Source of the DNA: a virus
Lineage: Duplodnaviria > Heunggongvirae > Uroviricota > Caudoviricetes
Length of the DNA stretch: 18,695 nt
Direction: 5' to 3' (one strand)
IMG/VR virus record: IMGVR_UViG_2778261593_000006
Coordinates: 1-18,695 of that record
Part shown: one piece after another, positions 12,001 through 15,000 of the stretch
Numbering within the stretch: position 1 is the stretch's first letter
Layout: each line of letters opens with the position of its first letter
Program-made: the position numbers

Positions 12001-15000
12001 AATGTCAGCGGCACACGTACAAGTATTCCCGAAATCTCCTGAGCCACACGTTGCAGAATGAAAGTAAACAATTCCGTTTCCAGCACCAGCCCTTCTTCGC
12101 GGGCATTTTTCAGCTCCTGTGCGTCAGCCTGTGCTTTAGTGAGCCGGTAGCGTTCATAGTCAATGGTGCCGGGTTGTAAATCTGATTCTGCAGCCGCACG
12201 CGAATCTTCCAGTTCTTTGCGGAGCTTTTCATTTTCGATATCTTTTTCCCGCTGCGCATACCACTCAATGGCTTCTGCAGTATTGAACATGGTCTCGATA
12301 CCTTTGCCTCCCCCCGACAAAACTCTCAGCCCCTGACTTTGCCAGCCAGTGATTGTTCTGACATCGCACTCAAAAATTTCCGCCAGTTTCTTTTTGTTAA
12401 CCTTCACGGCACATATTCCTCACAAAAAGAAGAAAGGATCTCAAAACGCTTTTTTCAGCGAAAAATCACCGCTGCCAGATCCTTTCTTTTTTTTAAGAAA
12501 ACTCTATTAAACAACAGGTTAGCCAGAAGAAGAACGGATCTGCTTTTTCCCTGAAAATTTTCATAAATAGCGCGTTTTTGCGCGTCCCCAGACCCCCGGT
12601 ATTTCAGGTTCTGGAAAGGACCCGTGAAAATAGGAATGGTTTGCATATCGGATGCGCATAACATAACACGCATCATGGAAACAACATTCATTCACATTCC
12701 AGCAACATGATTTATTGCTTTCAACGAAACATCGAGTTAGGTTAGGAGCCATTGGCATCCTTTCGCCACCGGCATATCTTTAACGGATTTCCCTGCCGAT
12801 TTTTATTCCTGTGTTGCATTATCGCAACCCCTCACTGAAGGATCACTGTAATGCCTGTTTCTCACGAATCAGGCGAACATGCTGATCGCTAATTTTAATG
12901 CGTGAGTATTGTGGCTTGCAGTCAATCAGTGCGGTGATTAACCTGCCACCTTTAGTTTCCACAAATTTTTTTGCGGATAATCAATCACCACCTCCCTGGG
13001 AGGTGGTTTAGGGATAACAATAAAAACCCCGCAAAGCGGGGTTTTACATGAAATAAACATATTACTCAGTAGTACTGATAAAATCTAATCTATCTAAAGA
13101 CAAGAGAACACTGTCTTTGATGAAATCACTTATTTCATTAAATTTCTTTTCAGAATCTACATAATCGAATGTTTTTCTTCCATATCCATCGACAAATACT
13201 GTCAAATGTTCTTTTTCGATATATATTGAAATATCGCTATTTACCGAAACAAATGCTCTTGGATCATCGTCAATTACTGTCACTAAGGAAAAACGAACCC
13301 CTGCATGAAGCTCTACTATCAGATCTTCTGGCTCACAATAATTTCCACCTTGTGTTATATACACATATTCCTGTTGTTCACCAAGAATATTTATCCAAAA
13401 CTTACCAGAAACATCCAGTGAGGCTTTATAATTATCTATTAACTGCTTCGCTGCCTGCCTGATTGTTTGAACATATTCACTTTGTGTTTTTTTTAAAGCA
13501 TCTCGTTTGGCCTTGATATCATCGTATGTAACCATAATACTGATTCTCTCAGAAAAACATAAACGAGACATAATAATACCTCTATTGACACTCAATTTTA
13601 ATAGTTAGTATGGAATCAGTAATTACGTTGCAATCCCCTTAAAACAGGCATTATCGCAGCCCCTCACACAGAAGGGCTGCTGTAATGCCCGTTACTCAGT
13701 AACAACCACGCCTTCCGGCAATTTCATACCAGCAAATACCGGACAGCCAGGATGGCGATCATCTTCCGTTGCTTCCAGCATTGACTCACCAAACCACTCC
13801 GTTGTGGCGCGACCATCAGCTGCTTTGTAGTGGATCAAGTACTGGTTTTCGCCATCCGCATACTGCGCGCGGGCTTTAACCTCACCCCATTCATCACTGA
13901 TGCGCATCTCCACCAGTTGAGACAACTCAAACTTAAACGGAGCAGCATCAGCACCAATTACAATCGGTTTGTTTTCTGTTGTTTCCATCATCGTCTCCTG
14001 ATATCTAATCCCGCCGCCGCACCGGGCGGTGGCGCACCCTTCATTTTTCAGCAAAATATTCTGCTCTTACAGACGATCAGTTCTGCACACACCGTCGAAC
14101 GCCATCAATAAGCTGACAGACCTGAGACGCGGTATCGAAAAGCTGGCGCGCCTTATCCAGGCTGACGCATCCCACCAATAAAAAAGGCACCAGTATCGCT
14201 ACCAGTGCCCATTTCGCCGCCACTCGCGGTATTCTGTGTGTCCAGTGTTTTCGGCTCATGTCACCACCAACGCACAGCCCAAATCAGAACAGCGACCGCC
14301 ACAAGGCGAATTGCAAAGGCCGCAGCCCTTGTCAAATCAAGGCTCGCGGGAGTTTCCACTTCAATACCTTTCATAATGGACAACCTCAAAAAGAATCTTT
14401 TATACTTTCCCACGAGGATTTTCTCCGTACTCACTACTCACAATTTCCTCTTTGACGTGAAAACTAAAAACCCCGGACTGTTCCAGCAGCCGGGGTTTTG
14501 TTTTTTTATTTACCGCCCTGGGTGCGGCATCTGGCTATTTCATTCCTGGCTTTAGTGTCACCGCGACAGATACAACGAACCGTGTCACCCGCCAGCGTAG
14601 TGATGTAGGCCTCATCCGTTTTTTCCACCGAAATGCATGGTACATTTCCATCCAGGCAATACTCCACCTGGGCAGCAAGGTGAGTGTTGCGCGGGTAAAA
14701 TTCCAGGCGATACATATTCCCCAGAACATGCACTTCTTCAACCTGGCGCCCATCTTCCGTTACCGTGATTTTTTTCAGCGCGTACATACGTACCTCCGTT
14801 CTTTCGTTTTTTGAGCAATAAAAAAGCCGCTCATGGCGGCCCTGTATGTTTTGCAAGCTATCGCTTCAATTGAAAATGTGGGCCGTCTTTAAGCGTCCGC
14901 CAGTCCCCGCCCCATTCGATGACTGTTCCCAGCTCTGCGGCAGCCTGCTTAAATGCCTGCGCGATTTTCTCGTACAGAGGCCAGTCCCATGACACCTGGC

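Follow-up and report, generated by a model that had tools for sequence, protein, structure and literature searches.

Where on the genome of this Stx2e-type prophage would packaging into the virion begin, and is the site at which the DNA would be cut still read by the rules established for phage lambda? The window analysed here, 18,695 nucleotides (nt) of IMG/VR record IMGVR_UViG_2778261593_000006 (Caudoviricetes), is part of such a prophage, and the original prediction placed in it, at 12408–12600, a lambda-type cohesive-end site (cos) with a conserved cosB but a divergent cosN. That range does enclose cosN and cosB, although the packaging-termination signal cosQ (12623–12617) lies just outside it and was missed. 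We confirmed the minus-strand segment 12430–12625 as a complete lambda/21-type cos site, located directly upstream of intact genes for the small (Nu1, TerS) and large (gpA, TerL) terminase subunits. Weighing all of the comparisons below, we consider it likely to be the working cos of a lambda/21-type packaging module that combines a cosB resembling that of the Salmonella prophage Gifsy-1 with a hypervariable class of cosN (class C) peculiar to one TerL clade.

Positions within cos are given below in lambda numbering, in which lambda base n corresponds to window position 12595-n, as obtained from a BLAST register and an ungapped comparison. The elements follow one another as cosQ, cosN, I2, R3, I1, inverted R2 and R1 (Table 1), the same order as in lambda, where Nu1 and gpA likewise come directly after, and all cosB elements occupy the coordinates annotated for phage 21 (OL657228; R3 at 50–65, I1 at 74–86, inverted R2 at 107–122 and R1 at 150–166), with neither insertions nor deletions in the interval between cosN and R3. 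The motif GATCCKTTCTT was found exactly three times in the 18.7 kb, against 0.02 expected, and all three copies lie at cos (12540–12530 on the minus strand, 12478–12488 on the plus strand and 12440–12430 on the minus strand, equivalent to lambda 55–65, 107–117 and 155–165); the CCGTTCTTCTTC stretch of R3 is also found at the same coordinates in lambda. The 19-mer GCTATTTATGAAAATTTTC (12571–12553), identical to lambda bases 24–42, occurs once in the window, where none would be expected even with two mismatches allowed. This exact run forms part of I2, which agrees with lambda at 22 of 26 bases over bases 24–49; I2 is conserved in lambda, where its substitution was studied under the heading 'I2 is essential' (PMC4856287). 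At the other side of cosN, the cosQ-containing 13-mer ACGGGTCCTTTCC (12625–12613) is common to lambda and unique in the window. The cosQ heptamer, also present upstream of cosN in phage 21, is nearly invariant across related loci, and homology to related prophages begins at cosQ (query positions 125–132 in most of the matches listed). Its distance from the nick is 29 bp here versus 30 bp in lambda and phage 21 (-30 to -24), i.e. cosQ is 1 bp nearer the nick, a spacing shared with the GGGCGGCAGCGG class. The candidate IHF site I1 has one mismatch to the consensus YAANNNNTTGATW (eight of the nine specified positions match), and IHF motifs are not enriched above chance in the window (13 matches versus 14.6 expected), so that I1 is assigned from its position only.

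Alignments with lambda, 21, HK225 and Gifsy-1 support the predicted lambda-type cos and its conserved cosB layout, and approximately 200 related loci are in agreement. Likewise, the 19-mer upholds the claim that the segment after cosN is arranged as in lambda, and the three motif copies, together with TAACCTGTTGTTT between R3 and R2, that of three R elements with an A/T-rich, IHF-like tract among them.

The cosN is indeed divergent, as had been noted from the sequence. At the lambda cosN position, the predicted cohesive end GGTCTGGGGACG (12594–12583) shares 6 of 12 bases with lambda GGGCGGCGACCT, the latter being also the cosN of phage 21; the end had been located correctly in the original prediction except for a single base (12582–12594). 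We infer nicks between 12595 and 12594 on the minus strand and between 12583 and 12582 on the plus strand, which would give the left (Nu1) end 5'-GGTCTGGGGACG and the right (lysis/stx) end its complement, 5'-CGTCCCCAGACC. The accepted rule for cosN is that the left half GGGCGG and the CG flanks at both nicks are conserved and bases 7–12 are free (PMC4669245), and a citing paper also gives the first 4 bp (GGGC) as conserved. In the accessible literature, described natural variation is confined to bases 7–12 (N15, phiD326, Gifsy-1 and mEp213). N15, phiD326, the HK225-type GGGCGGCGTCCG and mEp213/LLS GGGCGGCGCGCT likewise combine a non-lambda cohesive end with a conserved cosQ, but they depart from lambda in bases 7–12 only and retain both GGGCGG and the CG flanks, whereas in the class to which the window belongs bases 10–12 are fixed, bases 3–9 vary and position -2 is not C (C in lambda, G in the window). 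The same difference separates the window from Gifsy-1, whose cosN GGGCGGCAGCGT has the canonical left half and CG flanks and whose TerL is 83.4% identical. To the right of cosN, bases 13–23 (window 12572–12582) differ between the window (CGCAAAAACGC), lambda (CGCGGGTTTTC) and phage 21 (CGCGGTTTTTC); an A5 tract replaces the T4 tract of lambda beside the bottom-strand nick, as if a short tract had been inverted, and might influence the bending of the DNA there.

We grouped related cos sites by this right flank, and those with CGCAAAAACGC at bases 13–23 constitute class C (L001, L005–L024, L091–L107, L133–L146 and L170–L208). At least 16 different 12-mers are found in the 36 distinct sites of class C, versus one to three in each of the other flank classes. 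The class consensus is G/GGTC NNNN GACG/C (slashes mark the nicks), with both nick-proximal arms symmetric, and position -2 is G or A instead of C. Diversity is saturated at cosN positions 5 and 7 (0.73–0.74), intermediate at positions 3, 4, 6, 8 and 9 (0.25–0.45) and zero at positions 1, 2 and 10–34; variation of the 12-mer is confined to positions 3–9 (window 12586–12592), and positions -1, 1, 2 and 10–34 are invariant in all 36 distinct sites. Neutral drift of the cosN centre is ruled out both by its diversity (0.58–0.75), which is far above the 0.14 found at third-codon positions of TerL in class C loci (no single third-codon position reaching 0.7), and by loci whose TerLs are identical or at most 8 nt apart and which still differ at two to five cosN positions. 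In one such case TerL is identical over 1,959 nt and cosN differs at two positions, and TerL pairs 5–8 nt apart show four to five cosN differences.

Class C was detected at 103 places in 82 of 5,426 complete Escherichia coli genomes, with up to three per genome and in many different prophage backgrounds. A 28-mer of the class had no match in one representative genome per species, and class C may occur in E. coli only or may simply be missing from those representatives. The common porcine Stx2e prophages of strains ETEC1730 and O139:H1 W13-16, which are 97–98% identical to the window overall, carry cosN GGTCATAGCACG and a 21-type cosB, so that similar toxin prophages differ in both cohesive end and packaging specificity. 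In the open full-text literature the 12-mers of the class appear as chance strings only, a search that did not extend to Vahanian et al. 2017 (Virology 509:140), and that survey may list the class. Class C departs from the rule that the left half is conserved and the right half free. Two ideas lead for its fast-varying centre: the TerL clade may read cosN loosely while the single-stranded ends mutate, or incompatible ends may be selected for.

The cosN class is tightly linked to a particular TerL. Class C flanks are found at all 29 loci encoding the TerL motif SEEEARQIV (residues 568–576), TerLs with a different motif there (e.g. SDVEAKQLV or SQTEAQQLV) are always accompanied by a cosN beginning GGGCG, and cosN position 3 is other than G only together with SEEEARQIV. 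Fifteen fixed differences separate this clade from a 96%-identical sister group, and among them E570, R573 and I575 are the sole residues of the 652 that are both derived and fixed in the clade; they cluster within six residues (codons at approximately 10205–10222) inside the GpA_nuclease Pfam domain (residues 336–616), the predicted cosN-nicking nuclease. No solved structure of a gpA homologue was found. The 26 distinct class C TerL genes have diversities of 0.033, 0.016 and 0.144 at codon positions 1, 2 and 3, respectively, a pattern that indicates purifying selection. The association between TerL and cosN is consistent with a nuclease and a half-site that have adapted to each other. We tentatively suggest, as a possibility somewhat short of even chances, that this clade, marked by E570, R573 and I575, has changed the way in which cosN is read, such that short symmetric arms suffice and the centre diversifies roughly 100 times faster than the adjacent genes; against this suggestion, the link between TerL and cosN could reflect one shared ancestor.

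The cosB and its TerS also depart from both lambda and phage 21. At R3 bases 55–63 the window reads GATCCGTTC, lambda TTTCCGTTC and phage 21 TGTCGGTAC; the corresponding TerS recognition helices (residues 17–24) are RTITGWQS, RTIQNWQE and RTIERWQS. Across 81 cos sites, RTIERWQS always occurs with TGTCGGTAC and RTIT(G/A/S)WQS always with GATCCGTTC, with no mixing. The window fits neither the lambda type, with GA in place of the lambda TT at bases 55–56 and another helix, nor that of phage 21, with GATCCGTTC and RTITGWQS rather than TGTCGGTAC and RTIERWQS. The comparison with Gifsy-1 is closer: the R core GATCCKTTC is shared, R3 is identical at 14 of 16 bases, the Gifsy-1 helix RTVTAWQS differs at two positions (I/V and G/A), and the TerS DNA-binding domain is identical at only 38 of 55 positions (29 of 55 for lambda). 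Judged from these sequences, the TerS/cosB pair is Gifsy-1-like rather than lambda- or 21-type and its packaging specificity probably differs from that of lambda; the earlier suggestion that cos specificity may not be lambda's is in this way supported for cosB and TerS by the R3 and helix types. TerS itself is chimeric, as residues 56 to the end are identical to phage 21 gp1 at 121 of 127 positions (95%) and residues 1–55 at only 37 of 55 (67%). The breakpoint lies near codon 55 (approximately 12243), with the Gifsy-1-like recognition helix in the N-terminal domain. The C-terminal half, the TerL-binding half of the protein (PMC9026076), also differs from that of Gifsy-1 (88/109 identical). Across related loci, cosN type assorts independently of cosB type.

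Were the site to work as we think probable, TerS dimers would bind R3, R2 and R1 and IHF would bend the DNA at I1, by which TerL would be held at a fixed distance from R3 and would nick the two strands 12 bp apart, leaving the 5' overhang GGTCTGGGGACG on the left end. Packaging would then proceed towards lower window coordinates, passing Nu1 and then the head genes, and would stop at the next cos via cosQ and cosN, so that the right virion end would carry stx2e and the lysis genes. This direction, and the far-end position of stx and lysis genes, had already been proposed from the sequence; the gene order is taken from an annotated relative that is 97.5% identical. In a class C cosN, the nick-proximal bases would be fixed and symmetric on both sides, and the central 4–7 bp would be free.

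The same cos could in principle be nicked 2 bp further from cosB, giving the cohesive end GGGGTCTGGGGA (12596–12585) with CG on both sides. The attraction of this frame, ..ACCG/GGGGTCTGGGGA/CGCG.., is that it restores the highly conserved CG flanks of the nicks (PMC4669245), and this counts against the GGTCTGGGGACG register. We nevertheless regard it as unlikely, since four independent arguments (spacing, recombinants, symmetry and the pattern of variation) favour GGTCTGGGGACG. In lambda the spacing between cosN and cosB sets the nick positions, and altered spacing displaces the nicks (PMC4856287, PMC4669245). Both I2 and R3 stand in exact lambda register in the window, and lambda spacing holds only for 12594–12583, the distance to R3 in the GGGGTCTGGGGA frame being 2 bp longer than in lambda, where spacing sets the nicks (PMC4856287). 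Two natural recombinants have their junctions precisely at the inferred top-strand nick: in L045 (= L171, IMGVR_UViG_2531839265_000001), the canonical ...GCCACG that ends a left flank of a different class runs straight into GGTCTGGGGACG, and in L131 (= L019, IMGVR_UViG_2924371731_000005) GGGCGGCGACCT follows the class C left flank ...CCGAG. Such junctions are the product expected from mismatched ends segregating at replication (PMC4669245). Both speak against the GGGGTCTGGGGA frame, L045 with canonical ...ACG immediately before GGTCTGGGGACG and L131 with canonical GGGCGGCGACCT in lambda register behind the same left flank; in related CCGAG sites, moreover, the first base of that frame would be A. 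The window cosN has the symmetric pairs -1/13, 2/11, 3/10 and 4/9, i.e. a partial twofold symmetry centred between bases 6 and 7. Of the 16 alleles, 15 keep the symmetry of the 4/9 pair and 13 that of the 3/10 pair (C...G or A...T), and the allele GGTACGCGTACG contains a perfect 10-bp palindrome with its centre between bases 6 and 7. This is the centre of the lambda register and not of the GGGGTCTGGGGA frame.

Other observations weigh against a working cos of this kind. None of the contigs (IMG/VR and metagenome) that contain a class C cos ends within 60 nt of cosN. Among the isolated phages of the phage collection no TerL exceeds approximately 83% identity, with the exception of one partial prophage record, and the cos DNA of isolated phages is matched only by the partial SerU-LTIIb prophage record. 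The cosN is not canonical, GG/GGTCTGGGGACG/CG having G at -2, T at 3 and T at 5; only bases -1, 1, 2, 4 and 6 and the CG to the right of cosN obey the rule. Changes in the left half can be harmful in lambda, where G2C cuts the yield approximately 10-fold (PMC4669245), and in the O139:H1 W13-16 relative the TerS gene is truncated (a pseudogene), that prophage being probably defective. The last point, and the fact that many Stx2e and related prophages are defective, could mean that the window holds a decayed and unused cos whose cosN drifted after loss of function, as might the mismatches to lambda at 6 of 12 positions, some of them left-half positions that are important in lambda (PMC4669245). 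We think this improbable, as decay would not have spared the flanks, yet positions -1, 1, 2 and 10–34 are invariant in the 36 distinct sites; the terminase and head genes are also intact and under purifying selection, and the class recurs at 103 places in 82 genomes with many prophage backgrounds. More improbable still is that lambda is a misleading guide and that this TerL clade cuts with another geometry (another overhang length or blunt ends) or packages by headful. Cohesive ends of 7 to 12 bases are known among lambda-like phages, and the derived nuclease-domain residues of the clade could mean a different cut. Yet its TerL shares 83% identity with the TerLs of phage 21 (82.7%) and Gifsy-1, both among the phages with 12-base 5' ends (PMC4856287), cosQ, I2 and cosB retain the lambda/21 spacing, and the conserved arms are symmetric and exactly 12 bp apart. 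A working cos with nicks at the ends of GGTCTGGGGACG remains our preferred reading.

Table 1. Elements of the cos site and the adjoining terminase genes, in window coordinates.
Feature	Position	Strand	Details
cosQ heptamer GGGTCCT, packaging-termination signal	12617..12623	-	positions -29 to -23 from the top-strand nick
Predicted cosN cohesive end GGTCTGGGGACG	12583..12594	-	lambda positions 1–12
I2, A/T-rich (lambda bases 18–50)	12545..12577	-	contains 19-mer GCTATTTATGAAAATTTTC
R3, predicted TerS site nearest cosN (lambda 50–65)	12530..12545	-	core GATCCGTTCTT; phage 21 R3 coordinates
I1, putative IHF bending site TAACCTGTTGTTT (lambda 74–86)	12509..12521	-	phage 21 I1 coordinates
R2, predicted TerS site, inverted relative to R3 and R1 (lambda 107–117)	12478..12488	+	inside phage 21 R2 (107–122)
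R1, predicted TerS site (lambda 155–165)	12430..12440	-	inside phage 21 R1 (150–166)
Nu1/TerS, small terminase subunit gene	11859..12407	-	182 amino acids; Pfam Phage_Nu1, E = 6.7e-84
gpA/TerL, large terminase subunit gene	9971..11929	-	652 amino acids; Pfam GpA_ATPase 8.5e-55, GpA_nuclease 4.8e-68

An open reading frame of 78 amino acids (12455–12691, minus strand) overlaps cosQ, cosN, I2, R3, I1 and R2 and appears as a hypothetical protein in RefSeq relatives (e.g. strain E41); no Pfam family matches it and, given its overlap with the cos elements, it is probably spurious rather than a real gene. The TerS gene starts with GTG at lambda-equivalent base 188 (189 in phage 21 and 191 in lambda).

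The best overall matches of the window are porcine E. coli chromosomes (97–98% identity). Its 13.6–18.7 kb part is 97% identical to phage phiP27 and encodes stx2e, holins, an endolysin and a DNA methylase, the order of the lysis and stx genes being taken from the 97.5% identical relative. The head genes (5.1–12.3 kb) share approximately 77% DNA identity with those of phage 21, and, like the terminase genes and the lysis/stx2e region, are all on the minus strand; the Pfam families Nu1, gpA, gpW, portal, S49 protease, D and E are intact. Immediately upstream of stxA are two tRNA genes (17640–17716 and 17818–17893), the first for Arg with anticodon tct and the second with anticodon CAT (Met here, Ile in RefSeq relatives). 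A further, odd tRNA that forms part of the annotation of relatives did not turn up in the window. P2/Mu-type baseplate genes (557–4371; homologues of gpV, gp25/W, J and I, named after the annotation of the same relative) are joined to the lambda/21-type head genes, so that the virion would be a hybrid of head and tail modules.

A cos site defines the ends of the packaged genome and hence which genes travel together, and it also decides which co-resident prophages or satellites can share a packaging machinery. Several lambda-like prophages are often present together in pig- and food-associated E. coli. In the prophage studied here, stx2e would lie near the right end of the packaged genome, and the type of TerS and cosB together with the cohesive end would limit both packaging by helpers and the recombinants that are viable; in lambda, mismatched ends lower the yield approximately fourfold (PMC4669245). 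Class C inverts the accepted pattern of cosN conservation and directs attention to three nuclease-domain residues, so that the long-open question of what the gpA nuclease reads at cosN becomes testable. Should this TerL clade indeed read cosN differently, sticky ends would be nearly private to each prophage lineage, and their variation could stem either from lesions in the single-stranded overhang, with the resulting mismatch segregating at replication, or from selection against end compatibility of co-resident prophages. The lambda rule would then be overturned, and class C would offer a natural allele series for dissecting the specificity of the terminase nuclease.

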